A stretch of 64,000 bases of DNA, from positions 15,991 to 79,990 of the forward strand of contig CAZOJT010000009.1 in the NCBI GenBank assembly GCA_964580215.1, given 5' to 3'. Every line of letters begins with the position of its first letter. Within the stretch, counting starts at the first letter, position 1. Position numbers and translations under genes: made by a program. The notes under the pieces were generated by a model. That model had not been told where the DNA came from. It searched no databases and worked only from the letters and a program-made list of their open reading frames with translations. Source of the stretch: an uncultured Ignavibacteria bacterium. Its GTDB lineage: Bacteria > Zixibacteria > MSB-5A5 > SM1-73. Below, in pieces: positions 8,481-24,382 of this stretch.

Positions 8481-8496
8481 GCATCTTAAACTCAGA

Positions 8497-8540
8497 AGAG
8501 GTGGGTTCCCGCCAATGTGGGACACCCACCTCTTTTTATT
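8497..8540 (+). terminator. rho-independent terminator after the dockerin gene
   Basis: agaggtgggt...acccacctct stem followed by TTTTTATT. Confidence 0.6.
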
Positions 8541-8852
8541 GTCTGTTTGTAGTTGCCCCATTCATGGGGCGTGTTTAGCTCAATAAATTGAGCAACTACA
8601 TTTACCCCCAGATCGGACAGGAATTGCACCTCTGTCCGCCCAGACGGGCGGTCGTCTGACCGGATAGAGGGGTGGGGGTACAACCCCCGCCCCAACAAGG
8701 GCTCAATAAATTGAGCAACGACATTTATCCGATTGTAATTACAAATTCCTTCAGATCATAACAACACTGTTTTCCGGATATAGGAGCTTACAATCCATTT
8801 CCATCTTTCTCTCTGAAGAAATAGTTTTCTAAAAAAAACAGAAAGAATTAAC

Positions 8853-8881
8853 TTGACAACCCTAGGTGAGCTTGTTATTTA
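8853..8881 (+). promoter_or_regulatory. candidate sigma70 promoter of the nuo operon
   Basis: TTGACA, 17-nt spacer, TATTTA, lying ~25 nt upstream of the nuoA start region. Confidence 0.35.
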
Positions 8882-9282
8882 TTTCACAAACTTTTGAAGG
8901 AATGGATATGTTTGAAGTCTATTTTCCAATTTTTGTTTTGATATTTGTGGTGACCGGGATGGCGCTTGTGATTTTGGCTTTTTCCTATTTGTTCGGAAGA
9001 AGGGTTCCCACCAAAGATAAGCTTTCCACCTATGAGTGTGGGAAACAACCCATCGAGGATGCCAGAGGAAGATTCTCGGTGAAATTTTATTTAATCGCAA
9101 TCCTCTTCATCATCTTTGATATAGAGGTGGTGTTTCTGTATCCCTGGGCGGTTATTTACAGAAAGCTTGGCCTTTTCGGCTTGATAGAGATGGGAATCTT
9201 TCTTTTGATCCTTCTGGTAGGATATTTTTACATAATCAAAAAGGGTGCGTTGAAATGGGAGGAGAGTGAAGAGGTTAGTTAA
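8866..9282 (+). CDS. nuoA: NADH-quinone oxidoreductase subunit A
   Basis: Three TM helices and conserved motifs YECG, FD(I/V)E, FLYPWA. The true start is probably at 8905 or 8911. Confidence 0.85.
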   Translation: MSLLFISQTFEGMDMFEVYFPIFVLIFVVTGMALVILAFSYLFGRRVPTKDKLSTYECGKQPIEDARGRFSVKFYLIAILFIIFDIEVVFLYPWAVIYRKLGLFGLIEMGIFLLILLVGYFYIIKKGALKWEESEEVS

Positions 9283-9480
9283 TACAAAAGCAAGGAATAA
9301 GTTTACTTACCCCTTATCCTCCCAGACGAGCAGTCGCTCCCGTCTGGGGGTCTCCGTAACTCTCTCCCGCAAGGGGAGAGGGGACTTCCCAGACGAGTCT
9401 CCGTCATAAATTTTCCCCTCCCTCGATGGAAGGGGGTGAGGGGAAGGGTGATTATGTCAGTTTATTTAATTGGTTCGTTA
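9283..9480. repeat. REP/MITE-like palindromic element (CCCCTCACC...CTCTCCCGCAAGGGGAGAGG...GGGGTGAGGGG family)
   Basis: Shares a ~150-bp consensus with 16397-16550. Contains nested palindromes (cccagacg…cgtctggg). The ORF track's N-terminal extension of nuoB is a translation of this repeat. Confidence 0.6.
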
Positions 9481-9497
9481 TCGTAAGGCAGAAAAAA

Positions 9498-9983
9498 ATG
9501 GGATTGGAAGAACATATACCAAGAGGTATTCTTTTGACCACCGTAGAAAAAGCGGTTAACTGGTCGAGAAAATCTTCTGTATGGCCACTGGGTTTCGGCT
9601 TAGCCTGCTGTGCCATAGAGATGATGGCAACTGCCGCCTCTCGTTTTGATATATCGCGTTTCGGAATGGAGGTCTTCAGATCCTCCCCCCGTCAAGCGGA
9701 TTTGATGATCGTGGCAGGTCGGGTTTCCAATAAGATGGCTCCCGTGGTTCGACTGCTTTATGAACAGATGTCTGAGCCCAAGTGGGTGATCGCCATGGGC
9801 GCTTGTGCATCCAGCGGAGGAGTGTTTAACAATTATGCTATCGTTCAAGGTGTAGACAAAATCATCCCGGTGGATATCTATATCCCCGGATGTCCTCCCA
9901 GGCCAGAACAGTTGTTAGAAGGGATCATGAAATTGCATAAGAAAATAGAGAAGGAGTCATTGAGAAAAAGGTCAACGGATTGA
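9498..9983 (+). CDS. nuoB: NADH-quinone oxidoreductase subunit B (20 kDa, Fe-S N2)
   Basis: CCxxE…GxCxxxGG…CPP cysteine motifs. The start has been moved to the internal Met past the repeat. Confidence 0.9.
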
Positions 9984-10082
9984 GCGGATGGGTCAACGGA
10001 TTAAACGGATTGAACGGATGAGGTCAACGGATCGAGCGGATGGAACGGATAAGTCAACGGATGAAACGGATTGAACGGATGT
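9970..10082. repeat. tandem array of GGTCAACGGAT/TRARCGGAT units
   Basis: About 10 imperfect units, directly visible. The array starts inside the last codons of nuoB. Confidence 0.8.
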
Positions 10083-10118
10083 GATGCGGGCTGTTAGAAA
10101 GTTACAGGGAGAGTTGAG

Positions 10119-10619
10119 TTGGAAAATCCAATATTGACAAAATTAAAGGAGAAATTTTCAGAGTCGATTCTGGAGGTTGCTGAATTTCGAGGGGAATTGA
10201 CTATTGTAGTGAGAAGAGAAGACATTGTTTCCCTCTGTACCTTCTTACGGGATGAGCCGGAGCTTGCCTTCAATTTTCTTTCTGATCTTTGTGGAGTTGA
10301 TCGTCTCGGAAGACAGCCAAGATTCGACGTAAACTATCACCTCTACTCCTTAGATAAGAATCATCGATTGAGATTGAAAGTAAAAGTGGAGGAAGGGGAA
10401 AGCGTGCCTTCAGTTACCTCTGTCTGGAGCACAGCAAACTGGCATGAAAGAGAGGTATTCGACCTTTTTGGAATAAGGTTCGACAATCATCCGGACTTAA
10501 GAAGAATAGTGATGCCCGAAGACTGGGAGGGTCACCCCTTAAGAAAGGATTTTCCTTTGACCAGAGAGGAAGTGATGTTCACTCATAACAAAATTCTTCC
10601 TCCGAAGATAATAAAATAA
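10119..10619 (+). CDS. nuoC: NADH-quinone oxidoreductase subunit C (30 kDa)
   Basis: NuoC motifs (ANWHEREVFDLFGI). Confidence 0.85.
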   Translation: MENPILTKLKEKFSESILEVAEFRGELTIVVRREDIVSLCTFLRDEPELAFNFLSDLCGVDRLGRQPRFDVNYHLYSLDKNHRLRLKVKVEEGESVPSVTSVWSTANWHEREVFDLFGIRFDNHPDLRRIVMPEDWEGHPLRKDFPLTREEVMFTHNKILPPKIIK

Positions 10620-10682
10620 GATATGGAAGTGGCTTTTGTTATACACGAGGGTTCTTAGAAGTGATTTTTTTGAGTTATTATT

Positions 10683-10800
10683 TTGGAGTGTCAAGCTTTA
10701 GCTTGACCTTTTAGGTTCCTGGAAAATAAATAGACTTTTCTTGGCCCCGCTAAAGCGGGACACTCCAATTTCCACTCTCTAAAAACTTTTTCAGGAACCT
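10683..10800. repeat. MITE-like element with GGAGTGTC...GACACTCC termini
   Basis: ttggagtgtcaagctttagcttgacc…ccccgctaaagcgggacactccaa, plus flanking aggttcctggaaaa/tttttcaggaacct inverted repeats. Family members are at 12585, 55397, 58464, 61666 and 63441. Confidence 0.6.
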
Positions 10801-10830
10801 CATACACCAATCTTTGATAAAGGATTAAAT

Positions 10831-12033
10831 TTGAAACCAGAGGCTTTGAACAGAATTGAAAAAATCGGCACCAACACCATGGTACTGAATATGGGTCCTC
10901 AGCATCCCGCCACTCACGGTGTCTTGAGGGTGATCCTGGAGTTGGATGGCGAAACCGTGATCAAAGCTACACCGGACATAGGCTATTTGCATACTGGCAT
11001 TGAGAAGACCATGGAAAACAAGACCTATGCTCAGGTGATTCCTCTCACAGACAGGATGGATTATGTGGCATCGCTTTCCAATAACTTGGCTTACCTTCTA
11101 TCTGTGGAAAAGCTTTTGGACATTCAAGTTCCCCCAAAAGCACAGTTCGTCAGGGTGCTTTTGACCGAGCTGACCCGAATTGCCAGCCATTTAGTCTGGG
11201 TCGGTTCTCATGCCCACGATATAGGCGCCATGAGTATGCTTCTGTATGCTTTCCGGGAGAGAGAAAAGCTTCTGGACATATTTGAACTTGTCTCCGGGCA
11301 GAGAATGATGACCTCCTATTTCAGAATCGGTGGGCTGGCTCAGGATGTCCCGGACGGATTTGAACCCAAAGTCAGGGAAGTTTTAGATACCTTTCCAGAC
11401 AGGATAAATGATTACGAAAATCTTTTGACTAAAAACCGCATCTGGCTTAATCGAACTGTGGGGGTAGGAAAGATCTCTGCAAATGATGCCATCAACTGTG
11501 GTGTTTCAGGTCCCATTTTGCGAGCCTGCGGAGTGAAGTGGGATATCAGAAAATCCAATCCCTATTCCGGTTATGACAGGTTCGAATTTGATATACCTGC
11601 CGGAAAAAATGGAGACGTTTATGATCGTTATTTAGTCCGGCTGGAGGAGATGAAGCAAAGCTTAAGAATAGTGGGACAGGCTTTGGATGGAATTCCAGAG
11701 GGAGATTTTGTTGCCCGGATTCCCGGAGTGGTGCTTCCTCCCAAGGAGGAGGTTCTCTCCAACATTGAAGCTTTGATATTTCAATTCAAATTGGTAGTGG
11801 AAGGATTTTGCCCACCGGTGGGGGAAGTTTATCACTCCATCGAATCTCCCAAGGGAGAGTTGGGCTACTATATCGTCTCAGACGGGTCAAACAAACCCTA
11901 TCGAGTTAGAGTGAGGCCTCCCTGTTTTGTCAACTTAAGTGCTCTCCCCAAAATGATCGAAGGAAGGCTGATTGCTGACGTGGTGGCGGTCATCGGAAGC
12001 ATTGATATTGTGTTGGGTGAAGTGGATAGGTAA
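10831..12033 (+). CDS. nuoD: NADH-quinone oxidoreductase subunit D (49 kDa)
   Basis: Motifs NMGPQHPATHGVLR and RIASHL; full length. Confidence 0.9.
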   Translation: MKPEALNRIEKIGTNTMVLNMGPQHPATHGVLRVILELDGETVIKATPDIGYLHTGIEKTMENKTYAQVIPLTDRMDYVASLSNNLAYLLSVEKLLDIQVPPKAQFVRVLLTELTRIASHLVWVGSHAHDIGAMSMLLYAFREREKLLDIFELVSGQRMMTSYFRIGGLAQDVPDGFEPKVREVLDTFPDRINDYENLLTKNRIWLNRTVGVGKISANDAINCGVSGPILRACGVKWDIRKSNPYSGYDRFEFDIPAGKNGDVYDRYLVRLEEMKQSLRIVGQALDGIPEGDFVARIPGVVLPPKEEVLSNIEALIFQFKLVVEGFCPPVGEVYHSIESPKGELGYYIVSDGSNKPYRVRVRPPCFVNLSALPKMIEGRLIADVVAVIGSIDIVLGEVDR

Positions 12034-12036
12034 AAA

Positions 12037-12074
12037 GGTTTACGGTTTGAGGTTCAAGGTTCAAGGTTTAAGGT
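12037..12074. repeat. GGTTYAAG heptamer/octamer tandem repeat
   Basis: ggtttacggtttgaggttcaaggttcaaggtttaagg lies immediately 5' of the nuoE start. Confidence 0.7.
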
Positions 12075-12082
12075 AAGATGAT

Positions 12083-12562
12083 ATGCTGAGTGAATCTGCT
12101 AAAAAGAGGATTGCTGAGTTAAAAGAGAAATTTCCGGAAAGAAAGTCTGCCATCCTTCCGGCCATGCACGTGGTGCTGGAGGAGATCGGTTTTTATAATC
12201 GAGATATTCTAAAACAGGTAGCAGGGCTTCTTGATCTAAGTGAGATGGAGGTGGCTGAGGTCGTTTCCTTTTATACCTATTTCCCCAAGCAGGGAGTGGG
12301 CAAATATCACATACAGGTGTGTTCAAATGTCTCATGCATGCTTTTGGGAGCAGAACAACTTTTGAGCTACCTGGAGGAGAAGCTAAAGATAAAAGTTGGG
12401 GAAACCACCCCGGATGGTCTTTTTACTTTGTCCGAAGTGGAATGTCTGGGCTCTTGTGGCACGGCTCCGGTGATGCAGATAAACCAGACCTATTATGAAA
12501 ATCTGACCAGAGTCAAGGTGGATAGAATAATTAAGGATTTGAGAAAACAGAAAGAAATATGA
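12083..12562 (+). CDS. nuoE: NADH-quinone oxidoreductase subunit E (24 kDa, 2Fe-2S)
   Basis: Thioredoxin-like fold with Cys motifs CxxxxC…CLGxC. Confidence 0.9.
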   Translation: MLSESAKKRIAELKEKFPERKSAILPAMHVVLEEIGFYNRDILKQVAGLLDLSEMEVAEVVSFYTYFPKQGVGKYHIQVCSNVSCMLLGAEQLLSYLEEKLKIKVGETTPDGLFTLSEVECLGSCGTAPVMQINQTYYENLTRVKVDRIIKDLRKQKEI

Positions 12563-12584
12563 GACAGATTTCAGCTTAGTTGTG

Positions 12585-12668
12585 CTGGAGTGTCCCGCTT
12601 TAGCGGGACCAACAAAATCTTGAAATACAAAAGACTCTTTTGAGTCCACCTAAAGGTGGACACTCCAG
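12585..12668. repeat. MITE-like element with GGAGTGTC...GACACTCC termini
   Basis: ctggagtgtcccgctttagcgggacc…ccacctaaaggtggacactccag. Confidence 0.6.
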
Positions 12669-12695
12669 TTTACCTTCTCTAAGGTTTTTTTAGGG

Positions 12696-13991
12696 ATGGG
12701 TGAGAAAATAATGGAAAAGATTTTGTTTAAATATATAGATGTTCCAGACCAATACAAGATCGACACCTACATCCGAAATGGTGGCTATCGGGCTCTGCCC
12801 AAAGCTTTGAAAGAACATACCCCAAATGAGTTGATTGAGATGGTAAAAAAATCAGGCTTGCGGGGAAGGGGAGGGGCTGGTTTTCCTGCTGGACTCAAAT
12901 GGAGCTTTGTTCCCAAAGACTCACCCAAGCCCAGGTTTTTGCTATGTAACGCAGATGAAGGGGAGCCGGGCACATTCAAAGACCGGGCTTTGATCGAAAA
13001 TGATCCTCACCAATTGTTGGAGGGGATCATCATCGCCTCTTACGCCATAGGAGCGCACCGGGCTTTCATTTACATCCGGGGAGAATTTTATTTCGGAGCC
13101 AAGAGATTAGAGAAGGCTATACGCGAGTGTTATCAAAAAGGATACCTGGGAAAAAACATTTTGGGAGCAGGCTTTGATCTGGATGTGGATGTATACAGAG
13201 GAGGAGGAGCATACATCTGCGGAGAAGAGACCTCTTTGATGGAATCGGTTGAGGGGGGAAGGGCAAATCCCCGACTGAAGCCACCTTTTCCCGCCTCGGT
13301 AGGACTTTACAGAAATCCTACGGTGATCAATAACGTGGAAACTCTGTCAAATGTTCCTCATATCGTGTTGAATGGAGCAGAATGGTTTGCAAATATCGGT
13401 GAACCCAAAAGCACCGGCACAAAGATATTTTCCCTTTCCGGTCACGTAAATAAACCTGGCAATTACGAACTTCCCATGGGTGTTACTTTAAGGGAGTTGA
13501 TTTTTGAGCATGGCGGAGGCATAAAAGATAATCGCCAACTGAAAGCTGTAATACCGGGCGGAGTATCCACCCCGGTTTTGACCGCTGACCTTCTGGATGT
13601 GAAGATGGATTTTGAATCCCTTTATGAAGCCGGGTCGCTTTTAGGATCCGGAGCCACCATTGTGATGGACGAGACTACCTGTATGGTAAAGGTGGCTTAT
13701 CGTATATCCAAATTCTTTGAGCATGAGTCTTGTGGCAAATGTGTTCCCTGCAGAGAGGGAACCAGGTGGATCAGACAGATCATGGAGAGGATTGAAAACG
13801 GAAAAGGGAGAGAACAGGATCTGGATCTTCTTCGAGACATCTGCGCCAATATAGCCGGGAATACGGTCTGCCCGATGGGTGATGCCGCGGTGGTTCCTGT
13901 CACCAGTACCATAGAGAAGTTCCGGGATGAGTATGAGTATCACATAAAGAACAAAAAATGTATGGTGGATTTGGGGGCAAGATTTGTATGA
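12696..13991 (+). CDS. nuoF: NADH-quinone oxidoreductase subunit F (51 kDa, FMN/NADH-binding)
   Basis: GRGGAGFP glycine-rich motif and 4Fe-4S motif ESCGKCVPCREG. Confidence 0.9.
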   Translation: MGEKIMEKILFKYIDVPDQYKIDTYIRNGGYRALPKALKEHTPNELIEMVKKSGLRGRGGAGFPAGLKWSFVPKDSPKPRFLLCNADEGEPGTFKDRALIENDPHQLLEGIIIASYAIGAHRAFIYIRGEFYFGAKRLEKAIRECYQKGYLGKNILGAGFDLDVDVYRGGGAYICGEETSLMESVEGGRANPRLKPPFPASVGLYRNPTVINNVETLSNVPHIVLNGAEWFANIGEPKSTGTKIFSLSGHVNKPGNYELPMGVTLRELIFEHGGGIKDNRQLKAVIPGGVSTPVLTADLLDVKMDFESLYEAGSLLGSGATIVMDETTCMVKVAYRISKFFEHESCGKCVPCREGTRWIRQIMERIENGKGREQDLDLLRDICANIAGNTVCPMGDAAVVPVTSTIEKFRDEYEYHIKNKKCMVDLGARFV

Positions 13992-13994
13992 AGA

Positions 13995-14087
13995 GGTCAA
14001 CGGATGGGTCAACGGATTAAACGGATTAAGCGGATGGGTCAGCGGATTGAACGGATGGGTCAACGGATGAAGCGGATTAAGCGGATG
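13995..14087. repeat. tandem array of GGTCAACGGAT/TRARCGGAT units
   Basis: About 8 units between nuoF and nuoG. Confidence 0.8.
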
Positions 14088-14103
14088 AAGTGATCAAGAT
14101 AAT

Positions 14104-16350
14104 ATGGTGACCTTAACCATAGATGGAAAAAAGGTAATAGTGGAGGAGGGGATCACTATCCTTAAGGCGGCGGGAAAACTGGGGATAGAGATTCCCACCT
14201 TCTGCTTTCACGATAAGCTGGAGCCGGTGGGCGCCTGTCGAATGTGTCTGGTGGAGGTGGAGGAGATGGGGAAACTTCAGGTTGCTTGTGCTACCCCAGT
14301 CTCTGAGGGAATGGTAGTAAAAACTGATACTCCCCAGGTGAGAGCCGCCAGAAAGGGTGTTTTGGAGTTTCTACTTATTAATCACCCATTGGATTGTCCT
14401 GTCTGTGATAAGGGGGGAGAATGTGAACTTCAAAATTTGGTGTTCAAATATGGCTCAGATAAAAGCAGATATGTAGAGGAAAAAAGAAGATTTTCGGTCG
14501 ATCCCAAATCCAAGTATGATGATCTACCTGTCGGATCGCAGATAATAAGAAATATGAATCGTTGCATCCTGTGCCGCAAGTGCGTTCGATTTATAACTGA
14601 GATCGCCGGGGAAACTGACCTGGGAACCTTTGGGCGAGGGTCAAGATCAGAGATAAACGTCTTACCGGATATTCCGGTTGACAATCCCTATTCGGGAAAT
14701 GTGGTGGAAATCTGTCCGGTGGGTGCTTTGACTTCAAAATCCTTCAGATATAAAGTGCGGGTTTGGCAGACTGAAGTCACGTCTTCAATCTGCCCTCTTT
14801 GTGGCGATGGTTGTAACATTAAGCTATGGACAAAGGATGATAAAATTTACCGCATCACTTCTCGAAGGAATGATTTGGTGGATGAGGGATTTTTATGCGA
14901 TAAGGGCAGATTCGGATTCGAGTTCGTCAATCATCCTGACAGGTTGAAGCATCCTTTAATAAAGAAAAATGGAAAACTTTCACCTGCGGATTGGGACGAG
15001 GCGATCGAATTGGTGGCTTTAAAGCTAAGAAACATAAAGGAGCAATCTGGTGCAGATTCTCTGGCTGGAGTGGGTTCATCAAAATTCACCAATGAGGAGA
15101 ACTACATCTTGCAGAAATTCTTCAGAGTGGTGCTGGGAACTAATAACATCGATCATCGAGTCAATTCAAAACGTCTTCTGCCCAGCCCTAATTTTAAAGC
15201 TAAAAATCAAATTTATAGCATGACCAATTCTATAAGTGAGATCGAGAAGGCGAAGCTGATTTTTGTCTTGGGCTGTGATCTACAAAAGGAACATCCTATA
15301 ATAACCCTGAGAGTGATAAAATCAGTCAGGAAAGGCAATGCTCTGATTTTGGCAAATTCAGAAAGCTCCCGCTTGAATAGATTCGCCCAGGATGAGCTAA
15401 TTTACAAGAAGGGAACCGAGTTGGATTTGTTAAATGGAGTAACAAGTGAGATCATAGAGGAAAAACTATTTGATGCTGATAAGATGGGTCTCTTTGAAAA
15501 CGAGATGCAGAAGCTACGAGAGAAAGTCCAGCCATTTGACAGCAAAAAAGTTTCGCAGACAACCGGGATTTCTTCAGACAAAATCAGAAGCTTGGCTCAT
15601 GCGCTAACAAGAGTTGAAAGCATCATGATTCTTTGTGGCAGAGAAATAATTACTCATCCGCAAAACGCTAAGATAATCGACTCTCTGTATGATCTTTTGC
15701 ATTTGACCGGACACCAGGATAAAGACGGTTGCGGGGTCAATCTACTGGGGGAGGATTGCAATTCCCAGGGAGCTTTGGATTGCGGGGTTTTGCCGGATAG
15801 GCTTCCGGGCTATATCGACGTTTCGGATGAAGCTTTGCGAAAAAAGGTTGAACAAATCTGGAATGCTGAAGTTCCAGATAAGCCGGGGCTTGATTTTAAT
15901 TCCATGTTGGAAGGAATTAATCAAGGGAGGATCAAGGCAATGTATATCGCAGGTGCAGACCCGGTGAGTGAATATCCGGACAGAGACTACGTAAAAGGTG
16001 CACTCAAAAGGCTTGATTTTCTGGTGGTTCAGGACATCTTCTTAACCGAGACTGCCAAGTTAGCCCATGCGGTTTTGCCCGGAGCCTCTTTTGCTGAAAA
16101 AGACGGGACCTTCACCAACGTGGAGAGAAGGGTTCAAAAACTCAAGAAAGCATTCAATCCTTTAGCAAATTGTAGGGCTGATTGGTATATCATCTGTATG
16201 TTAGCCCAAGCCATGGGATACGATTTTGATCACACCTCAGCCGGGCAAATTTTCGAAGAGTTAGTCAAGGTCTCGCCCATTTATTCAAAAATAGACTGGG
16301 AAGATTTAGGTGAATCGGGAAAACAATGGGAAATTGAGAAAGGTATATGA
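14104..16350 (+). CDS. nuoG: NADH-quinone oxidoreductase subunit G (75 kDa, molybdopterin-like)
   Basis: N-terminal 2Fe-2S and 4Fe-4S Cys clusters (CRMC, HPLDCPVCDKGGEC, CILCRKC), then a molybdopterin-oxidoreductase-like domain. Confidence 0.9.
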   Translation: MVTLTIDGKKVIVEEGITILKAAGKLGIEIPTFCFHDKLEPVGACRMCLVEVEEMGKLQVACATPVSEGMVVKTDTPQVRAARKGVLEFLLINHPLDCPVCDKGGECELQNLVFKYGSDKSRYVEEKRRFSVDPKSKYDDLPVGSQIIRNMNRCILCRKCVRFITEIAGETDLGTFGRGSRSEINVLPDIPVDNPYSGNVVEICPVGALTSKSFRYKVRVWQTEVTSSICPLCGDGCNIKLWTKDDKIYRITSRRNDLVDEGFLCDKGRFGFEFVNHPDRLKHPLIKKNGKLSPADWDEAIELVALKLRNIKEQSGADSLAGVGSSKFTNEENYILQKFFRVVLGTNNIDHRVNSKRLLPSPNFKAKNQIYSMTNSISEIEKAKLIFVLGCDLQKEHPIITLRVIKSVRKGNALILANSESSRLNRFAQDELIYKKGTELDLLNGVTSEIIEEKLFDADKMGLFENEMQKLREKVQPFDSKKVSQTTGISSDKIRSLAHALTRVESIMILCGREIITHPQNAKIIDSLYDLLHLTGHQDKDGCGVNLLGEDCNSQGALDCGVLPDRLPGYIDVSDEALRKKVEQIWNAEVPDKPGLDFNSMLEGINQGRIKAMYIAGADPVSEYPDRDYVKGALKRLDFLVVQDIFLTETAKLAHAVLPGASFAEKDGTFTNVERRVQKLKKAFNPLANCRADWYIICMLAQAMGYDFDHTSAGQIFEELVKVSPIYSKIDWEDLGESGKQWEIEKGI

Positions 16351-16396
16351 TTGAGATTATGAAAACTAAGATGGCTATCAACAATAAAAGAACCTT

Positions 16397-16550
16397 TTTA
16401 ATACAAAAGCAAGAAATAAATTTATATACCCCTCACCCTAACCCTCTCCCACAAGGGGAGAGGGAACTTCATAAATTTCCCCCTCCCTTGATGGGAGGGG
16501 GTGAGGGGGAGGGTGATTATGTCAATTTATTTAATTCGTTTACTATAGTT
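16397..16550. repeat. REP/MITE-like palindromic element (same family as 9283-9480) plus gtcgggattttgtaatcccgac hairpin
   Basis: Near-identical blocks atacaaaagcaag…cccctcaccc and …gggggtgagggg-agggtgattatgtca-tttatttaatt. Confidence 0.6.
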
Positions 16551-16649
16551 ATGTCGGGATTTTGTAATCCCGACACAAGCTTGGGCTTCGGGAATACAAA
16601 TTCCCGAAGCAACAAGGAGCCTGTGGTTTCATAGTGATTCGGGGAAAGC

Positions 16650-17633
16650 ATGTTAGCATTTATCATTATTACCTTGATTAAAGTCGCACTGGTTCTGGTT
16701 GTTTTTCTACTGTTGATTGCTTACCTGACCTGGCTGGAAAGGAAACTTTTGGGTCATTTTCAGGTGAGATTGGGTCCCATGCGGGTGGGACCTCATGGTC
16801 TTCTTCAGCCCATCGCAGACGGTGTAAAACTTCTTTTTAAAGAAGACATAGTTCCAGCGAATGTGCATAAATTCATCTATAATTTGGCTCCTGTTTTGAC
16901 CTTTATCCCTGCCTTGATAATTGTGGCAGTCATCCCCTTCGGATCTGGGATAAAACTTCTGGGATACGAAGTCGATATGGTGATCTCCAACTTCAATATG
17001 GGAATACTTTACGTACTTGCGGTCAGCTCTTTGGGGGTATACGGACTGGTTTTAGCTGGCTGGTCCTCCAACAACAAATATTCGCTTCTGGGAGGCTTGA
17101 GGTCTTCCGCCCAGATGATCAGCTATGAAGTATCCTTAGGTCTTTCCCTGATTGGGGTTTTGATGATTGCCGGTTCTTTAAGCTTGGTTGACATAGTGAA
17201 CGCACAGGATAAGTTTTTCAACTGGTTTATTTTCCGCCAACCGCTGGGATTTCTCCTGTATCTTATCTGTGCCATTGCCGAGACCAACCGTGCTCCTTTT
17301 GATCTCCCCGAGGCGGAAAATGAACTGGTGGCAGGATATATGACCGAGTATTCGTCCATGAAGTTCGCCATGTTCTTCTTAGGAGAGTATGGCAACATGA
17401 TAAATGTCTCTGCCTTGGCGACCACTCTGTTTTTGGGCGGGTGGCATGGTCCGTTTTTGCCGCCGGTGGTCTGGTTTCTGATAAAGATGGTTTTGTTTCT
17501 CTTTTTCTACATCTGGATAAGAGCCACACTGCCAAGATTCAGATATGATCAGTTGATGAATTTCGGATGGAAGGTATTGCTACCTCTGGCGCTCCTTAAT
17601 ATTTTCGTCACGGCGGTGATAATGATATTGTAA
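16650..17633 (+). CDS. nuoH: NADH-quinone oxidoreductase subunit H
   Basis: 8-TM protein with NuoH signature motifs ([11 protein letters not shown]). Confidence 0.9.
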
Positions 17634-17637
17634 AAAA

Positions 17638-17702
17638 AGTTCAAAAGTTCAAAGGTTAAAAAGTTCAAGCGTTTAATGGTTCAAAGGTTCAATGGTTCAA
17701 TT
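17638..17702. repeat. GGTTCAA-type heptamer tandem repeat
   Basis: gttcaaaagttcaaaggttaaaaagttcaagcgtttaatggttcaaaggttcaatggttcaa. It overlaps the annotated nuoI start. Confidence 0.7.
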
Positions 17703-18158
17703 ATGTTTGATGTTTTGAAAACCATATTCTGGGCGATTCCTAGAGGTTTGTCGGTCACTTTCAAATATCTGCTTTCCCGACCGACTACGGTAAGATATCC
17801 AGAGCAGAAGCTGACACTTTCTCCGCGGTATAGAGGTCTACACTATCTGGAAAGAAACGAGGATGGGTCGGAGAGGTGCGTCTGCTGTGGGCTCTGTGCC
17901 GCCACCTGTCCCTCCGGGTGCATATACATGGAGCCGGCAGAAAACGAATTTGGTGAAAGATATGCTAAAGTGTATGAGATAAATGAACTCAGATGTATAT
18001 TCTGCGGATATTGCCAGGAAGCCTGTCCCAAGGAGGCGATTTTCTTAGGAAAGGAATACGAATTCTCCAATGACAGACGGGAGAAGTTGATATACACCAA
18101 AGAAGATCTGTTGGTGCCTTTGGACAAAAAGGGTCAACGGATTGGTCAACGGATGTAA
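17676..18158 (+). CDS. nuoI: NADH-quinone oxidoreductase subunit I (2x4Fe-4S ferredoxin)
   Basis: Two CxxCxxCxxxCP motifs. The start may be at 17703. The 3' codons are encoded by the GGTCAACGGAT repeat. Confidence 0.9.
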   Translation: MVQRFNGSIMFDVLKTIFWAIPRGLSVTFKYLLSRPTTVRYPEQKLTLSPRYRGLHYLERNEDGSERCVCCGLCAATCPSGCIYMEPAENEFGERYAKVYEINELRCIFCGYCQEACPKEAIFLGKEYEFSNDRREKLIYTKEDLLVPLDKKGQRIGQRM

Positions 18159-18194
18159 CGGATTGGTCAACGGATGTAACGGATTAAACGGATA
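18132..18194. repeat. tandem array of GGTCAACGGAT units
   Basis: ggtcaacggattggtcaacggatgtaacggattggtcaacggatgtaacggattaaacggat. Confidence 0.8.
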
Positions 18195-18199
18195 GGAAG

Positions 18200-18706
18200 A
18201 TGGAGATTTTGATCTTTTCCATAGTGGCGGTGGTTGCGGTTGCCTGTTCTATTTTGGTGATTAGCCAGAGAAGCCCAGTGGCAAGCGCACTCTTTCTGAT
18301 AGCCACCATGGCAAGCTTAGCCATACTCTTTTTGTTATTGAACGCTCCGTTCTTGGCGGCAATCCAGATCATAGTTTATGCCGGTGCCATCATGGTCTTG
18401 TTCCTGTTTGTTATCATGCTTTTGAATCTGAGGAGGGACGAATTCGGTCCGGAGAAAAGAAAAGCTCAGCGATTTTTTGCTATTCTGTTCGTCTTTCTAC
18501 TTCTGATCGGAATGGCAACCGTTATTGAGGTGGGAGTTTTTGGTTCTAAATCAGCCGAAGATGTTTCCGAGTCTGCCATTCCCGCTGGGGTTGAGCCTTT
18601 GGCTCAACTTCTTTTCACCAAATATCTTTTTCCGTTTGAGTTGGCGTCGGTTTTGCTTTTGGTGGCAATTGTGGGTGCCATAGTTATGGCAAAAAGGAAA
18701 TTATGA
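18200..18706 (+). CDS. nuoJ: NADH-quinone oxidoreductase subunit J
   Basis: 5-TM small subunit lying in the J position. Confidence 0.85.
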   Translation: MEILIFSIVAVVAVACSILVISQRSPVASALFLIATMASLAILFLLLNAPFLAAIQIIVYAGAIMVLFLFVIMLLNLRRDEFGPEKRKAQRFFAILFVFLLLIGMATVIEVGVFGSKSAEDVSESAIPAGVEPLAQLLFTKYLFPFELASVLLLVAIVGAIVMAKRKL

Positions 18707-18807
18707 AAACTTAATCTGGGATAAATGGTTCATATACCGCAGAGCCGTGAAGGCTCTGCTACGCGATATTCGGTAAGAAAGAAAAGAATCAATTCAGGGT
18801 AAAAGCA

Positions 18808-19110
18808 ATGGTTTCTTCATCTCCATATTTAATACTGAGTGCGGTGATTTTCGCCATCGGCGTTCTGGGAGTTTTAGTCAGGCGAAACATTTTGATCATG
18901 TTTATGTCCATCGAGCTGATGCTGAATGCGGTTAATTTAGCATTTGTGGCCTTATCCAGACAGTTGGGTTCTCTGGATGGTCAGGTGGTTGTGTTTTTAG
19001 TGATGACCGTGGCGGCGGCAGAAGCCGCGGTGGGATTGGCAATAATCATATGTTTGTTTAGGAATAAAAAAAGCGTTAATGTTGATGACTTCAACTTGAT
19101 GAAATGGTAA
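18808..19110 (+). CDS. nuoK: NADH-quinone oxidoreductase subunit K
   Basis: 100 aa, 3 TM, conserved EAAVGLA motif. Confidence 0.9.
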
Positions 19111-19193
19111 GCTGTCCACAGTCCTCAGTCCACTGTCCATGGTTAAAAGCCTTAGCTGTGGACTGTCGACGGTGGGCTGTGGACGATTAAAAA

Positions 19194-21140
19194 ATGAACT
19201 ACGTTTATTTAGTTCCATTATTTCCTCTGATCGGTTTTTTGGTCAACGGAATTTTAGCCCTCACTTTGAAAGCTTTTCCTGAGGAGAAAAGTTCAGGCAA
19301 AAGCTTGGTGAGCTGGATAGGTTGCACCTCTGTGGGTTTGTCCTTTTTGACCTCCATGGTCATATTCTTTCAGCTTTCGGCTCTGCCAGCAGGGGAGAGG
19401 GTGGTGCAAAAGATTGCCTTCCCCTGGATTTTGTCCGGAAAGTTTCATATCGACGTTGGCTTTCTGCTTGATCCTCTCTCATCAGTTATGATCTTGGTGG
19501 TTTCCGGAGTGGGATTTTTCATTCATCTCTACTCCATCGGTTACATGGAAGAGGATAAAGGATATGCCCGGTATTTTTCATTTCTGAATCTTTTCACATT
19601 CTTCATGCTCACTCTGGTCCTATCCAACAATTTCCTCTTGCTTTATCTGGGATGGGAAGGGGTGGGCTTGTGCTCCTATCTTTTGATCGGCTTCTGGTAT
19701 GAGAAGAAGAGCGCCGCAGACGCAGGAAAGAAGGCTTTCATCGTCAACAGAATCGGAGACTTCGGTTTCGCACTGGGAGTGATGTTGGTTTTCTGGACTT
19801 TCGGAAGTTTGAATTTCACCGAAGTTTTTGAGAATGCACCGCACGTCTTGGCTCTTGGAGGAGGATTGGTCACCGCCATCACCTTACTTTTGTTCATGGG
19901 AGCCACCGGCAAATCCGCCCAGCTACCACTTTATGTATGGCTTCCTGACGCCATGGAGGGTCCTACTCCTGTCTCAGCGTTGATTCATGCTGCCACCATG
20001 GTAACAGCGGGAGTATATATGGTGGCAAGGTGCCATGCGCTCTTTCTTCTGGCTCCGATCTCCATGGGAGTGGTGGCTGTAATCGGGGCGGCAACCGCCA
20101 TATATGCCGCATCCATCGGTCTGGTGCAAAATGATATTAAAAGAGTATTAGCATATTCCACCATCAGCCAGTTAGGATATATGTTTTTAGCTTGCGGAGT
20201 GGGAGCCTTCGCTTCTGGGATATTCCATCTCATGACCCATGCATTCTTTAAAGCTTTGCTGTTTCTGTCCGCTGGCGCGGTTATGCATGCCTTGGCCGGC
20301 GAGTTAAATATGCAGAAGATGGGCGGCTTGAAGAAATATATACCCATCACCTTCTGGTGTTTTCTTGCCGGAACTTTGGCTATCTCCGGGATTCCTCTGT
20401 TCTCCGGATTCTTCAGCAAAGATGAAATTCTGTGGAAAGCATTCTCCAGCCCTCACGGTCATTTCCTGCTCTGGCTGGTGGGGGTGATCACTGCGGGACT
20501 GACCGCATTCTACATGTTCAGATTGGTCTTTTTGACCTTTTTGGGAAAATCCAGAGTGGATCCAGAAGTCCAGGCTCATATTCACGAAGCTCCGAAATCC
20601 ATGACCATCTCTCTGGTGGTCTTAGCCGTGCTTTCGGTTATCGGAGGCTATGTGGGAATTCCTCATTCCTTAGGAGGATCGAACAGATTCGAAGGATTTT
20701 TGTCCTCCGTATTTGAGCAAAGTCATTCTACTACTCACCCTACCACTCACACGATGTCTACTGAGTATCTTTTGATGATTATCTCCATAGTGGTGGTGAT
20801 AATTGGCATTCTTGTTGCCCATCGATTTTACATCCAGAATGTGAAGATTCCAAAAAAACTGGCGGAAAAATACAAAACCCCCTATCGGATTTTGTTCAAC
20901 AAATATTATGTGGATGAACTCTATGCTAAAGTTTTTGTAAATCCTCTTTTGAGTCTGGCTTTGTTGTTGTGGAAGCAATTTGATGTTTTGGTGATAGATG
21001 GTATAGCCAATGGGATTGCCTCTGTGGTCAAGGGATTAGGCACGGTTATAAGAAAAACCCAGACCGGCTATCTGCGCAATTACGGTCTCTCCTTGCTTTT
21101 GGGAACAATTTTGATCTTGTTCTATTTTATCTTTCGGTGA
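19194..21140 (+). CDS. nuoL: NADH-quinone oxidoreductase subunit L
   Basis: 648-aa antiporter-like subunit with a long C-terminal amphipathic arm. Confidence 0.9.
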
Positions 21141-21144
21141 GATA

Positions 21145-22707
21145 ATGATGGATACCTGGATTTTAACCATACTTACGTTTTTCCCGCTTCTGGGAGTTTT
21201 GATATTACTTCTTATCGATAGAAGCAGGCACGGTGCCATTAAAATAGTTGCCTTTATCCTCTCTTTGTTGAATGCCATATTCTCCCTTTATATTTATTTC
21301 AATTTCGCCCCTGAATCGTCAGCTATGCAATTCTCAGTTAACAAGGCATGGATTGAGAGTCTGGGGATAAACTATCATCTGGGAATTGACGGAATCAGCC
21401 TGTTTTTAGTTCTCCTGACCACGCTCCTTACTCCTTTAGCTATTCTTTCATCCTGGTCTGCCATCACCGAGAAGGTAAAGGGTTACTACATTTCCATGCT
21501 GTTTCTGGAAACCGGAATGATCGGGGTTTTCGTCTCTTTGGATCTGTTCTTATTCTACGTTTTCTGGGAACTCATGCTTATCCCCATGTATTTTCTGATA
21601 GGTGTCTGGGGCGGGCCCAGAAGAATATATGCCACCATCAAATTTGTCCTCTTCACCATGACCGGTTCCCTTTTGATGCTGGTGGCGATTTTAGTCTTGT
21701 ATTTCATGAACCATAGTTTCACCGGCACGTATACCTTTAACCTCCTGGAGATAAATAATCTTCCTATTCCCTTGGGAGCACAATTCTGGTTGTTTTTTGC
21801 CTTTGCCTTAGCTTTCGCCATAAAGGTTCCCATGTTTCCGTTTCACACCTGGCTTCCTGATGCACACGTGGAGGCTCCCACTGCTGGCTCGGTTATCTTA
21901 GCCGGGGTTTTGCTTAAGATGGGAACGTATGGTTTCCTGAGGTTCTGTCTCCCCCTGTTTCCTAATATGTTTATAGATTATGTCCCGCTTTTCTCCATTT
22001 TGGCGATAATTGGCATCATCTACGGTGCTCTGGTCTGTATAAGACAGGAGGATGTGAAGAGCCTGATAGCGTTCTCATCAGTCAGCCATCTGGGCTTTGT
22101 GATGCTGGGACTTTTTGCCCTCAATATTCAAGGAATGGAAGGGGGCATACTTCAGATGATCAATCACGGCATCTCCACCGGAGCATTGTTCTTGATCGTG
22201 GGGATGATATATGAGCGAAGACACACCCGGCTGATTTCCGATTTTGGGGGTGTGTCGAAGAAAATGCCTGTCTTTGCCGCTTTCTTTATGATAGTTACCC
22301 TTTCCTCCATCGGGCTTCCCGGAACCAATGGCTTCGTGGGAGAATTTACCATTCTTCTGGGAACGTTTAAATCCAACGTGGTTTATGCAGTGTTAGGGGC
22401 GGTTGGGATCATCTTAGCCGCAATATACATGCTATGGATGTATCAACGCGTCATGTTCGGAAAAATCACCAAGCCGGAAAATGAGAAATTGAAGGATTTG
22501 AACTTAAGAGAAAAGATAGTTTTAATACCGTTGATTCTGGCAATTTTCTGGATCGGCATTTATCCCAATCCGTTCTTTAACAAAATAGAACCCTCAGTCA
22601 AAACTCTTATAGAGAATGCAAAGATAAAATACGAGAAAAATCAGCTTTTTGAGGAAAGCTTGACTATAGATTCCCAACAGATGAAGCGGATGAAACAGAT
22701 GGAGTGA
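21145..22707 (+). CDS. nuoM: NADH-quinone oxidoreductase subunit M
   Basis: Antiporter-like subunit ([11 protein letters not shown] motif). Confidence 0.9.
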
Positions 22708-22811
22708 AGAAAGTCAGGAGTAAGAATTAAGACGGAAAAGTAATGAGAGACCAAATGATCATCTATGTCAGTAAAAATCTGGAAGCCGAAGATAGATTGG
22801 GAGAGATTTAG

Positions 22812-24266
22812 ATGGATTGGATCATGCCAGCAGTTAATTTCAAATTGATTTTGCCAGAGATCATTCTCTGTGTCTTTGCTATTTTCATACTGGTTCTGGA
22901 TCCCTTTCTTTCCAGAGATAGAAAGATTTTAACTGCTCATCTGGCTTGGATAGCCATCGTGTTATCCTTTCTGGCGAACTTGAGTCTCTGGGATTTTCAA
23001 GATACAACTTTCAGCCAAATGTTTTTGGTGGACAATTACGCCACCTTCTTTAAATTCATCTTCCTTACCGGATCGTTTCTGATCATCTTTGCCTCCATGA
23101 ATTATCTTAAAAGGGAAGAGATTTTACATGGAGAATACTTCAGTTTGATTTTGTTCTCCACCTTGGGCATGATGCTTTTAGCATCCGGCTTTGATCTGAT
23201 TGTAATCTTCTTAGGACTGGAGATCATGTCGATTTCCCTTTACGTGTTGGCTGGGTTCAAAAGAAGCGATCTAAACTCCAACGAAGCTTCCTTGAAATAC
23301 TTCTTGATGGGGGCATTTGCCACCGGCTTTTTGCTTTATGGAATTGTCATGATTTACGGAAGCGTGGGAAGCACTAACTTGGAACAGATAATCAAAAGCA
23401 TCGCCTTTGGTGAAGCCGGTCCAAATCTTTTAATCTGGGCTGGTGCGGGATTGCTATTGGTGGGCTTCGGATTCAAGATAGCTTCAGTTCCTTTTCACAT
23501 GTGGGTGCCGGACGTGTATCAGGGAGCTCCCACTCCGGTGACCGCCTTTATCTCCGCCGGTCCCAAGGCGGCTGGATTTGCGGCACTCTTGAGAGTATTT
23601 CTCTTTTCCTTCGTTACCATAAAGCTGGATTGGACCGTGATCGTCTGGATCATGGCGGCTTTGACCATGACCGTGGGCAACATCATTGCCATTGCCCAGT
23701 CTGATATAAAAAGAATGCTGGCATATTCATCTATCGCTCATGCCGGATACGTGCTTGTGGCGTTGGTGGCTGGTGGGGAGACTGGAATCTCCAGCGCGCT
23801 GTTTTATCTCTTAGCTTACACCTTTATGAACATCGGAGCTTTCACCGTGGTGATTGCGCTGGGAAAGAAGGGTCAGGAGAACACCGGTTTGGACGATTAT
23901 TCTGGATTGGGCACCAGATCTCCTCTTTTGGCTGTTCTGATGACGGTCTTTATGTTTTCCCTGGCAGGATTCCCTCCCACCGCTGGATTCATGGGAAAAT
24001 TCTATGTTTTCAGCGCGGCAGTGAAATCAGGATTTGTGGGATTGGTTATAATCGGAGTGCTGAACAGTCTGATCTCGGTTTATTACTACTTGAGAGTGGT
24101 GGTCATCATGTTCATGCACCCACCACAGCCTGAGGCGCAAAGAGTACCATTAGCTTTTGGCGCCGCTCTGGTTTTGTTGATCTCCATCTGGGGGGTTCTA
24201 CAGATGGGCATATTCCCCGACAGCCTACTTAGCCTGGCTCAAGCCTCGGTTTCATCCATATTTTAG
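22812..24266 (+). CDS. nuoN: NADH-quinone oxidoreductase subunit N
   Basis: Antiporter-like subunit in the last operon position. Confidence 0.85.
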   Translation: MDWIMPAVNFKLILPEIILCVFAIFILVLDPFLSRDRKILTAHLAWIAIVLSFLANLSLWDFQDTTFSQMFLVDNYATFFKFIFLTGSFLIIFASMNYLKREEILHGEYFSLILFSTLGMMLLASGFDLIVIFLGLEIMSISLYVLAGFKRSDLNSNEASLKYFLMGAFATGFLLYGIVMIYGSVGSTNLEQIIKSIAFGEAGPNLLIWAGAGLLLVGFGFKIASVPFHMWVPDVYQGAPTPVTAFISAGPKAAGFAALLRVFLFSFVTIKLDWTVIVWIMAALTMTVGNIIAIAQSDIKRMLAYSSIAHAGYVLVALVAGGETGISSALFYLLAYTFMNIGAFTVVIALGKKGQENTGLDDYSGLGTRSPLLAVLMTVFMFSLAGFPPTAGFMGKFYVFSAAVKSGFVGLVIIGVLNSLISVYYYLRVVVIMFMHPPQPEAQRVPLAFGAALVLLISIWGVLQMGIFPDSLLSLAQASVSSIF

Positions 24267-24382
24267 TTCTCAATCTCTCACAGCTGATTAACTGGATTAA
24301 GCTGATCAGTTATTATGAATATCTGTTTAATCCGATCAATCTGCTGTGAATTTTCTTTGCCGAGCAAAACTGTCTATTGTCA

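Follow-up and report, generated by a model that had tools for sequence, protein, structure and literature searches.

Miniature inverted-repeat transposable elements (MITEs) such as the Correia elements of Neisseria and Nezha of cyanobacteria insert between co-transcribed genes, and repetitive extragenic palindromic (REP) sequences between malE and malF of Escherichia coli reportedly stabilise the upstream segment of the mRNA (Newbury et al. 1987). Long simple repeats, in cyanobacteria known as short tandemly repeated repetitive (STRR) sequences, form a second kind of intergenic repeat. GGGNATC repeats of Xanthomonas and Nostoc lie 0-50 bp past stop codons on the coding strand and sometimes overlap the stop, are scarce between divergent genes, and recur between the same genes of related species while differing greatly in length, without an identified function (Rehm et al. 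2015, PMC4692102). TAACTGA repeats of Beggiatoaceae, cyanobacteria and Bacteroidetes are mostly situated just upstream of starts, and readers of the S1, Csp or CsrA type have been proposed for them (MacGregor 2015, PMC4679880). TTTTGAA/TTCAAAA heptamers of Nostoc occur near starts and have effects in reporter assays, with the partner unidentified (bioRxiv 10.1101/2022.06.06.494920). Here, the intergenic repeats of a 64-kb stretch of DNA (the window, always meaning this whole stretch) from an uncultured sediment bacterium of a Zixibacteria-like lineage are described. According to Pfam, the window contains a complete 14-gene nuoA-N operon on the plus strand (8866-24266) and a ten-gene operon on the minus strand, atpZ-I-B-E-F-H-A-G-D-C (53292-61986), where the open reading frame (ORF) upstream of atpI matches ATPase_gene1 (atpZ).

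The gaps between the genes of these operons hold two independent layers of repeats, old and conserved tandem arrays and young MITE and REP-like elements, and both layers are of kinds already known from other bacteria, namely heptamer simple repeats and REP/MITE elements. The array families are AACGGAT followed by two variable bases, 7/8-mers of the GTTCAA type and GYGGACN heptamers, and their arrays begin at the stop codon of the preceding cistron or shortly past it. The nearest species-representative genomes are Zixibacteria metagenome-assembled genomes (MAGs), whose NuoH is 82-84% identical and the closest of which share 84% protein identity over the whole nuo operon. Gap-by-gap comparison included two relatives with a syntenic nuo operon (L001 and L002, both 84% identical to the window on the protein level) and a third of which the nuoG-L part is present (L003, 80%). 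Identity to the window at fourfold-degenerate sites was 0.50 for L001 and L002, 0.45 for L003 and 0.33 for a further locus (L007); between L001 and L002 it was 0.78. Most of the array-bearing gaps hold tandem arrays also in L001 and L002, matching in family or period class, and in L003 the correspondence is partial. Arrays with the core AACGGAT are present between nuoB and nuoC also in L002 (at least five units), between nuoF and nuoG also in L001 (252-nt gap) and L002 (157-nt gap), and at the end of nuoI in all three relatives; L001 has three such units at the 3' end of nuoB, inside an extended nuoB ORF that overlaps nuoC, and L007 carries an ACGGAT-core variant. The nuoD-E gap holds 7-mer arrays also in L001 (GTTCAAA x6) and L002 (AGAGTCT x6), AAGGGTTC is repeated seven times between nuoH and nuoI of L001, and a hairpin of 81-83 nt built of CGTCCGC/GCGGAC units fills nuoK-L of L001, L002 and L003. 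By contrast, the gaps that carry the other elements in the window are short or closed in the relatives: nuoC-D measures 35 nt and lacks an element in L001 and L002, nuoE and nuoF overlap in both, nuoG-H is 6 nt long in L001, and nuoJ-K is 18 nt long in L001 and L002. In the two loci used for the atp operon, L177 (AtpA 89% identical) and L153, an AACGGAT array directly follows the atpE stop and GCGGAC heptamers precede atpF. The operon also contains REP-like palindromes as well as members of the same MITE family, in L177 in a different atp gap (atpA-G).

The presence of arrays in the same gaps of the relatives, where the MITE and REP sites are empty, indicates that the arrays are old and position-fixed and the MITE/REP insertions recent. 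The active repeat proliferation suspected in an earlier, sequence-only reading of this DNA was thereby borne out for the MITEs and REP-like palindromes, which are lineage-specific, the orthologous gaps of L001 and L002 being short or overlapping. At a fourfold-site identity of 0.50 an unconstrained consensus of 7 nt should be lost, yet the AACGGAT unit is unchanged. As most of these gaps have retained their arrays in different genera, with a constant AACGGAT core, the arrays are taken to be selected parts of the mRNA. The preferred reading, to which we assign a probability of about 0.55, is that the arrays are kept as RNA spacer elements in the operon mRNA, and that the MITE/REP layer is selfish DNA.

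An artefact of assembly or binning, by which chimeric joins or collapsed repeats would have produced the gap contents, is highly improbable. Short-read contigs do break near repeats, and matching contigs end at window positions 20702 and 24459. However, contigs from four separate samples (three Joint Genome Institute (JGI) metagenomes, 3300031651, 3300031554 and 3300031650, and one Logan run, SRR9700625) are 100% identical to the window over 1.7-14 kb and together span most gaps, so that the contents of the gaps do not stem from an error of assembly, and independent MAGs of related species carry arrays in the same gaps.

Repeats were located by reading each gap, with Tandem Repeats Finder and by repeat and motif searches; the folding of gaps was scored against dinucleotide shuffles (z-scores; 200 shuffles for nuoB-C). 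The elements of the two operons are, in gene order:

9322-9382, nuoA-B gap (143 nt with longest ORFs, 215 nt with the gene as called by JGI): two REP-like palindromes, CCAGACG..CGTCTGG (9322-9347) and CTCTCTCCC..GGGAGAGGG (9360-9382); gap z -3.3.
9970-10085, plus strand, nuoB-C gap: 11 AACGGAT units of 9 or 12 nt, beginning within the last nuoB codons (..TCA ACG GAT TGA); z +1.85.
10683-10768, nuoC-D gap: 86-nt MITE with ends TTGGAGTGTC / GACACTCCAA and two CTTTAG-loop hairpins in its interior; z -3.7.
12035-12074, plus strand, nuoD-E gap: 5.7 copies of the 7-mer AAGGTTY, beginning 1 nt past the nuoD stop; z -0.73.
12585-12668, nuoE-F gap: 84-nt MITE with ends CTGGAGTGTC / GACACTCCAG; z -4.5.
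13995-14090, plus strand, nuoF-G gap: nine AACGGAT units, beginning 3 nt past the nuoF stop; z -0.03.
16442-16610, nuoG-H gap (299 nt): four palindromes, CCCTCTCCC..GGGAGAGGG (16442-16464), CCCTCCC..GGGAGGG (16481-16499), TGTCGGGAT..ATCCCGACA (16552-16575) and GCTTCGGGAAT..ATTCCCGAAGC (16585-16610), overlain by a 95-codon ORF (16347-16634) that has no Pfam match and is a gene in the JGI annotation; z -8.85.
17634-17700, plus strand, nuoH-I gap: eight AAAGGTTC-type 8-mers, which begin at the nuoH stop and extend into nuoI by 25 nt; z -0.04.
18132-18193, plus strand, nuoI-J gap: six AACGGAT units, beginning inside nuoI (..CGG ATG TAA) and stopping 6 nt short of the nuoJ start; z -0.52.
18739-18759, plus strand, nuoJ-K gap: hairpin GCAGAGCC-GTGAA-GGCTCTGC; gap z -2.9.
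19113-19185, plus strand, nuoK-L gap: hairpin of four GTCCACA-type heptamers paired with four TGTGGAC-type heptamers; minimum free energy -43.7 kcal/mol, z -7.0.
22676-22701, plus strand, 3' end of nuoM: 2.9 copies of the array-like 9-mer AACAGATGA, which encode the last ten NuoM residues in the one stop-free frame of the unit, as read from the sequence.
24426-24759, 3' of nuoN: REP-like palindromes (24426-24448, 24566-24588, 24631-24651) and an AACGGAT array (24689-24717) that faces inverted units (ATCCGTTTCATCCG) beside the stop of the convergent gene.
61667-61717, minus strand, atpZ-I gap: minimal MITE copy of about 50 nt, GCTGGAGTGTCAAGC..GGTGAACACTCCAAT.
61153-61181, minus strand, atpI-B gap: four GGTTTAA-type 7-mers, beginning at the atpI stop.
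60253-60286, atpB-E gap: four AAAGGTTC 8-mers as read on the plus strand, antisense to the atp genes and thus opposite in orientation to the nuoH-I array.
59929-60003, minus strand, atpE-F gap: GCGGACN heptamers (59940-59953) within a hairpin.
58464-58794, atpH-A gap (519 nt): 331-nt long MITE variant with nested palindromes.
56664-56685, atpA-G gap (188 nt): REP-like palindrome CCCTCTCCCC..GGGGAGAGGG, in addition to other hairpins.
55397-55698, atpG-D gap (432 nt): 302-nt long MITE variant with nested palindromes, overlain by an ORF (55351-55713) without Pfam match.
53729-53872, atpD-C gap (207 nt): palindromes CCCGCCAAAGGCGGG and GCAGGGC..GCCCTGC, both seen again in the atpH-A gap.

Of the 13 nuo gaps, 11 contain repeats or hairpins; in the atp operon, each of the eight gaps without gene overlap holds arrays, MITEs or REP-like palindromes. 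The sequence-only reading had described every nuo gap as filled by a structured repeat of a different family. This observation is real but overstated, and the interpretation given to it is partly right, for reasons that differ between the two layers. The nuoL-M gap measures only 4 nt, and in the 104 nt between nuoM and nuoN neither a repeat nor a structure was recognised (z +0.6). The elements listed for the individual gaps (REP-like palindromes in nuoA-B and nuoG-H, the arrays, MITEs in nuoC-D and nuoE-F, hairpins in nuoJ-K and nuoK-L) were essentially right, but they belong to five recurring families and one single-copy hairpin instead of a different family in each gap. Uniqueness, claimed for both hairpins, holds for that in nuoJ-K, of which no second copy was found in the window or in any fetched locus, whereas the one in nuoK-L is built from a heptamer family. 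The extension of the claim to the atp operon stands for its eight non-overlapping gaps. With the gaps of this operon being, in order, 92, 85, 45, 75, (overlap), 519, 188, 432 and 207 nt long, the described enlargement to 200-520 bp fits four of them and not the remaining ones of 92, 85, 45 and 75 nt. Outside both operons, a heptamer array (GTCAAGG x5, 32052-32087) lies 1 nt past the stop of the gene at 31223-32050.

A strict unit, position and orientation characterise the AACGGAT arrays. With up to one mismatch, GGTCAACGGAT matched the window 15 times, always on the plus strand (0.96 matches expected), and the array pattern (21 nt) was found in at least 119 stretches of JGI metagenomes from many samples, with G + C contents of 0.34-0.66. 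The context of the arrays was assessed for 63 arrays of at least three units, taken from the window, L001-L003 and the first 80 of these stretches; genes in this set, as in the survey of 80 species described below, are crude longest-ORF calls. Consecutive CGGAT cores were spaced by 9 nt in 210 cases, by 12 nt in 25 cases and by other distances in seven, which means that 97% of the spacings are 9 or 12 nt and thus multiples of three. The core is near-invariant, its two A positions being occupied by A in 92% and 76% of the units (its CGGAT part was given by the search pattern), and the following two bases vary. Between co-directional genes, 30 arrays were in sense and six in antisense orientation, some of the antisense arrays being the second arm of an inverted pair. 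Of 41 arrays with an upstream gene in the same sense, 34 begin -33 to +56 nt from its stop codon (median near +10), and nine overlap the stop, so that the upstream gene ends within the array as nuoB does. The distance to the next start is broad (3-433 nt). Eight of the 63 arrays lie within crude ORFs, compared to a coding fraction of about 82% in that DNA, and arrays are scarce between divergent genes. Direct and inverted arrays form hairpins after gene ends in metagenome contigs, as they do 3' of nuoN.

Several functions considered for this family were rejected. The arrays do not place stops in all three frames, the frame CGG ATK RAA being open through 9- and 12-nt units; their composition, which is C-poor and does not fit ARN, rules out Rho-loading sites and (ARN)n sites for Hfq; and canonical G-quadruplexes were discarded since the units carry GG only and GGG just in a GGGTCA variant. 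A specific tie to bioenergetic operons, as implied by the sequence-only reading, was likewise abandoned. The genes 5' of the arrays in metagenome contigs are unrelated in function and include polA, queA, mnmG, cinA, genes for a histidine kinase, tetratricopeptide repeat (TPR) proteins and a lipid A acyltransferase, and others, and in three contigs an array follows an ATP-dependent DNA ligase gene. Six contigs of high G + C content (0.64-0.66; L102, L115, L125, L133, L196 and L203) contain AT-rich AACGGAT arrays, and in several high-GC contigs arrays stand, in either orientation, directly before a Shine-Dalgarno sequence or a start codon.

The strand bias could also originate on the DNA level, with the arrays acting as iteron-like binding sites or as polar chromosome-organising or uptake-type sequences whose orientation follows replication. 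All 15 window matches of GGTCAACGGAT on the plus strand, one of them (29124) between minus-strand genes, the positive GC skew over that whole part of the window, and the direct and inverted pairs after gene ends, which recall the uptake sequences in terminators (the DNA uptake sequences of Neisseria), are in line with such a role. It is nevertheless improbable, as a period of 9 bp is out of phase with the DNA helix and the arrays lie within a few bases of the stop of an upstream gene of the same sense, and nine of them overlap this stop. Moreover, orientation follows the gene strand (30 versus 6) in contigs of unknown replication direction, the L177 array is sense to an atp operon on the minus strand, and the G·U asymmetry of the related hairpins described below points to RNA.

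The known long simple repeats share many of these features. Like them, the arrays detected here by Tandem Repeats Finder consist of 3-11 head-to-tail copies of short units (periods 7, 8, 9 and 12; units of 7-9 nt in common with the known cases), are strongly non-coding and scarce between divergent genes, occur between the same gene pairs in related species with changing copy number and next to genes of mixed function, and can form stem-loops where arrays are paired in inverted orientation. The GTTCAAA/AAAGTTC units of the window resemble the TTCAAAA heptamer of Nostoc. The AACGGAT family differs from the known heptamer repeats by its units of 9 or 12 nt with a fixed core of 7 nt, by its almost exclusive multiple-of-three spacing, and by its Zixibacteria-like host and occurrence in contigs with G + C contents of 0.34-0.66. 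Unlike the quadruplex-forming GGGNATC repeats, AACGGAT units have no tracts of three or more G and hence not the four G-tracts of a quadruplex, and unlike TAACTGA repeats they track the upstream stop and not the start. No link between Zixibacteria and such repeats was found in a literature search.

To assess how far such arrays are a feature of nuo operons, gaps were surveyed in 80 species-representative loci fetched with NuoH, among which related genomes are not independent observations. Arrays with a period of 7 or 8 nt between nuo cistrons were detected in many loci, including those of Acidobacteria, NC10/Methylomirabilota and Zixibacteria. Arrays were present in the D-E gap of 23/55 loci, in E-F of 18/59, in F-G of 18/62, in G-H of 17/75 and in K-L of 14/75. 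Among co-directional gaps of at least 25 nt, 70 of 250 within nuo contained tandem arrays, compared to 10 of 141 flanking gaps (Fisher odds ratio 5.1, p = 2.4e-7; 6-10 in size-matched gaps). The first array in a nuo gap begins a median of 9 nt past the upstream stop. For 57 of 129 arrays with periods of 7-9 nt an inverted partner array is located in the same gap, giving stems made of repeats, and among the 72 lone arrays the sense strand has more G than C in 51 and the reverse in 17. An excess of arrays inside nuo operons across phyla was not found in the papers on comparable repeats that were consulted. Many of the nuo-gap hairpins in Acidobacteria, NC10 and others have arms of about four tandem 7- or 8-mers each (for example TGATTGT x3.4 facing CAATCAA x4.4; loci L018, L028, L032, L037, L045-L047, L062, L066-L068, L070, L071 and L074). 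The sequence of the unit is different in each lineage and the architecture constant.

The two layers also differ in folding. The gaps with tandem arrays fold no better than their shuffles (z +1.85, -0.73, -0.03, -0.04 and -0.52), and in nuoB-C 198 of the 200 shuffles fold at least as well as the native sequence; if anything, these five gaps avoid structure. The description of the repeats as structured hence applies to the six nuo gaps with MITEs, REP-like palindromes or hairpins (z -2.9 to -8.85) and not to the five array gaps, which are shuffle-like. Since inverted duplication of an arm could mimic covariation, the strands were compared instead: G·U pairs become A·C mismatches on the opposite strand, and an excess of them on the sense strand therefore speaks for selection on the RNA level. 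In nuoK-L the sense strand folds at -43.7 and the antisense strand at -31.7 kcal/mol, with five G·U pairs versus none. The same direction was observed for atpE-F (-30.0 versus -21.2) and atpI-B (-24.3 versus -15.2), and in the repeat-stem hairpins of nuo gaps the sense strand is more stable in 19 of 26 cases (67 versus 37 G·U pairs). MITE and REP gaps, in contrast, fold symmetrically on both strands, as in atpH-A, or slightly in favour of the antisense strand, as in the REP gap nuoA-B (-59.0 versus -49.3 for sense). This pattern agrees with selection of the heptamer hairpins as RNA and with the mobile elements being palindromes on the level of DNA. The GYGGAC heptamer of the nuoK-L arms occurs also before atpF and in several gaps of the relatives.

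None of the intercistronic hairpins has a U-tract, and no T-run follows those of nuoK-L and nuoJ-K. A terminator scan of 8400-24900 returned 26 sites (18.3 ± 4.3 expected), none of them at the intercistronic hairpins, and neither terminators nor promoters were regarded as being in excess in this region. Internal termination and internal promoters were therefore dropped as explanations.

The younger layer consists of one MITE family and several families of palindromes. With up to one mismatch, CTGGAGTGTC was found 13 times in the window (2.9 expected). The MITEs have terminal inverted repeats of 10 nt and sizes of approximately 50, 84, 86, 302 and 331 nt. There are five copies in the window; a further nine were seen in other contigs, mainly between co-directional genes. 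That all five window copies lie in nuo or atp gaps, in a single 64-kb sample, may reflect a target preference or the small sample. Similar to Correia elements and Nezha, they are short, have terminal inverted repeats, fold into a single long hairpin, occur in several copies with empty orthologous sites, and harbour other palindromes nested in the long copies (302-331 nt). They differ in that no target-site duplication is recognisable, the flanks (ATTTT/AATTT and GTG/TTT) containing no consistent duplication; their designation as MITEs, like that of the REP-like palindromes, is based on sequence form. Of six palindrome families searched, five are represented in the window by 2-7 copies each, and the sixth by a single full copy. 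All are intergenic or fall within ORFs that lack a Pfam match, apart from one in a further ORF (48659-49030). The palindromes resemble the REP sequences and bacterial interspersed mosaic elements (BIMEs) of enterobacteria and pseudomonads in comprising several multi-copy families of 20-35 nt outside genes, which cluster after gene ends and inside operons, at times several per gap. They are, however, unrelated to these in sequence, and lineage-specific here.

Some further observations concern the sites of these elements. The palindrome CCAGAACCTAACTTAAGTTAGGTTCTGG follows two genes (30928-30955 and 34997-35024), one copy being directly followed by a T-run, and in L003 a closely similar palindrome makes up the nuoJ-K gap (3901-3963), which indicates a palindrome family common to several genera. 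L001 and L002 have a second complete nuoB-like gene between nuoA and nuoB (Oxidored_q6, E = 1e-29; L001:2720-3236, L002:2507-3018), a position at which the window has REP-like palindromes only. Mutually homologous small ORFs are inserted between nuoG and nuoH of L002 (9505-9948, 147 aa) and L003 (1149-1664, 171 aa), with a weak match to GIY-YIG in L003 only (E = 3e-4, just under the Pfam cut-off). The ORF of L003 is flanked by CGGGAAT..ATTCCCG palindromes like those at 16552-16610 of the window. With its inserted ORF and flanking palindromes, nuoG-H looks like an insertion hotspot.

The preferred reading, arrays kept as RNA spacers next to selfish MITE/REP elements, can be put in mechanistic terms. 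The large differences between L001 and L002, together with the published view of heptamer repeats, suggest that arrays grow and shrink by replication slippage. They would be transcribed within the operon mRNA, where a lone array would form a single-stranded, C-poor spacer after the stop codon that disfavours Rho loading and leaves the next start accessible, or a platform for a putative RNA-binding protein or for ribosomes. A fixed core of 7 nt at a strict period of 9 or 12 nt would presumably be read by something, most simply a multimeric RNA-binding protein. Where a direct and an inverted array are combined, as in nuoK-L and atpE-F, the resulting long hairpin without U-tract may block 3' exonucleases, by analogy with the REP sequences of malEFG in E. 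coli; in nuoK-L it could give the nuoA-K part of the transcript a stability other than that of nuoL-N. The MITEs with CTGGAGTGTC ends and the REP-like palindromes would be later arrivals at the same permissive sites, confined to this lineage, and would be tolerated because their hairpins lack terminator tails. The idea of the sequence-only reading that the repeats are selected as putative intra-operon elements of RNA processing or stability, in the manner of the malE-malF REP sequences, finds partial support in the conservation of the arrays, the sense orientation of the AACGGAT family, the enrichment in nuo and the sense-favoured hairpins; the arrays themselves, however, are not the stem-loops it had envisaged. 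Slippage, transcription through the gaps, a protein partner and effects on translation or decay all have this conditional status.

In a simpler explanation, all repeats are neutral and pile up between a stop and the next ribosome-binding site without being recognised in trans, and their orientation and C-poverty result only from the removal of variants in which Rho-loading sites or terminators would arise. We regard such pure tolerance as possible, though distinctly less probable than the preferred reading. Array length is highly variable and an array is sometimes lost altogether, as in nuoH-I of L002, the upstream genes share no function, and the scarcity of arrays between divergent genes is expected from promoter avoidance alone. 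Heptamers are moreover the commonest long simple repeats of prokaryotes and have been attributed to slippage (Mrazek 2007, in the account given in PMC4679880). Tolerance does not predict, however, that AACGGAT is retained in L001-L003 and in contigs with G + C contents of 0.34-0.66 despite identities of 50% and 33% at fourfold-degenerate sites, that nuo gaps have a 5-10-fold excess over size-matched neighbouring co-directional gaps, that 97% of the spacings are 9 or 12 nt, or that G·U pairs in the hairpins favour the sense strand.

A number of results weigh against the arrays being selected RNA spacers. The GGGNATC repeats follow the same positional rules and have no detectable regulatory role (PMC4692102). 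The nuoH-I gap has been lost in L002, and copy number and make-up of the arrays differ widely even between L001 and L002, which implies that any function of the arrays is dispensable or merely modulatory. The families of 7- and 8-mers occur in both orientations relative to transcription (atpB-E versus nuoH-I), and in metagenome contigs the bias of such arrays towards G over C is weak (26/41). The counts from the 80 species rest on crude gene calls and phylogenetically non-independent genomes, and the sense-strand stability test is marginal (26 hairpins, Wilcoxon p = 0.10). The check for compensatory changes suggested in the sequence-only reading revealed just two compensatory pairs in nuoK-L, in an alignment of four sequences. 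Finally, a search for CsrA, Hfq, RRM-type Rbp and CspA in the window and the fetched loci yielded no candidate reader; the sole match to an RNA-binding protein, a CsrA in an unrelated Eisenbacteria locus, is uninformative.

A bolder version of the preferred reading is speculative and rather unlikely. According to this version, AACGGAU(KR) arrays would be a cis-acting RNA code, read by a putative multimeric protein in the manner of TRAP, HutP or CsrA, that coordinates translation re-initiation or segmental decay of long operon mRNAs from its place directly behind stop codons and at times directly ahead of start codons, and is shared by many sediment and soil bacteria with G + C contents of 0.34-0.66. 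The repeat-stem heptamer hairpins in the nuo operons of Acidobacteria, NC10 and Zixibacteria would then have arisen by convergence as a related device. The arrays do resemble the RNAs bound by TRAP, HutP and CsrA/RsmA (CsrB/RsmZ) in being single-stranded with A-N-GGA motifs (ACGGAU) every 9-12 nt. GUCAACGGAUGU agrees in 9 of 12 positions with RUACARGGAUGU, which we take to be the consensus obtained by systematic evolution of ligands by exponential enrichment (SELEX), and this is a lead rather than proof of membership. In contrast to CsrA-binding RNAs, the motifs of the arrays are not placed in hairpin loops and belong to operon mRNA after stop codons instead of a dedicated small RNA; csrA was not found in the array-bearing loci examined.

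The remainder of the window offers an internal contrast to nuo and atp. A cluster of genes for a type IV pilus ATPase, an MglA-like GTPase and Roadblock proteins (37139-45240, Pfam) has no recognisable repeat in any gap, and other co-directional gaps are mixed, several containing palindrome families and others being empty. No match was obtained anywhere in the window with Rfam 15 at gathering thresholds, and no tRNA or tmRNA genes were found in it. Cumulative GC skew has its maximum near 50-52 kb, and gene orientation flips from plus to minus at approximately 53 kb (convergent), which would fit a nearby replication terminus or merely a local gene-strand effect. Two tandem paralogous YCF48/BNR-like genes (49031-53033; 623 and 624 aa) contain about 30 copies of a 123-nt unit, and their upstream regions are duplicated with 96% identity.

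On the practical side, gene callers turn repeat-filled gaps into ORFs of 95-120 codons without family, examples being those at 16347-16634 and 55351-55713, which were covered by the Pfam search, and that at 24380-24694, which overlies palindromic repeats. Biologically, the mobile-element layer is ordinary, and the conserved arrays abutting stop codons together with their excess in nuo are an unexplained and testable regularity. For the role of heptamer-type repeats beside bacterial genes, a question that dates from the description of the cyanobacterial STRRs, the arrays provide a comparative handle: one defined unit occurs across very different base compositions, arrays are fixed in the same gaps of an essential and universally recognisable operon, their excess in nuo is 5-10-fold across 80 species, and in hairpin form they have a G·U signature on the sense strand. 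The predictions that can be tested are that transcripts end at the hairpins, that a protein binds the nonamer, and that subunit stoichiometry is affected.

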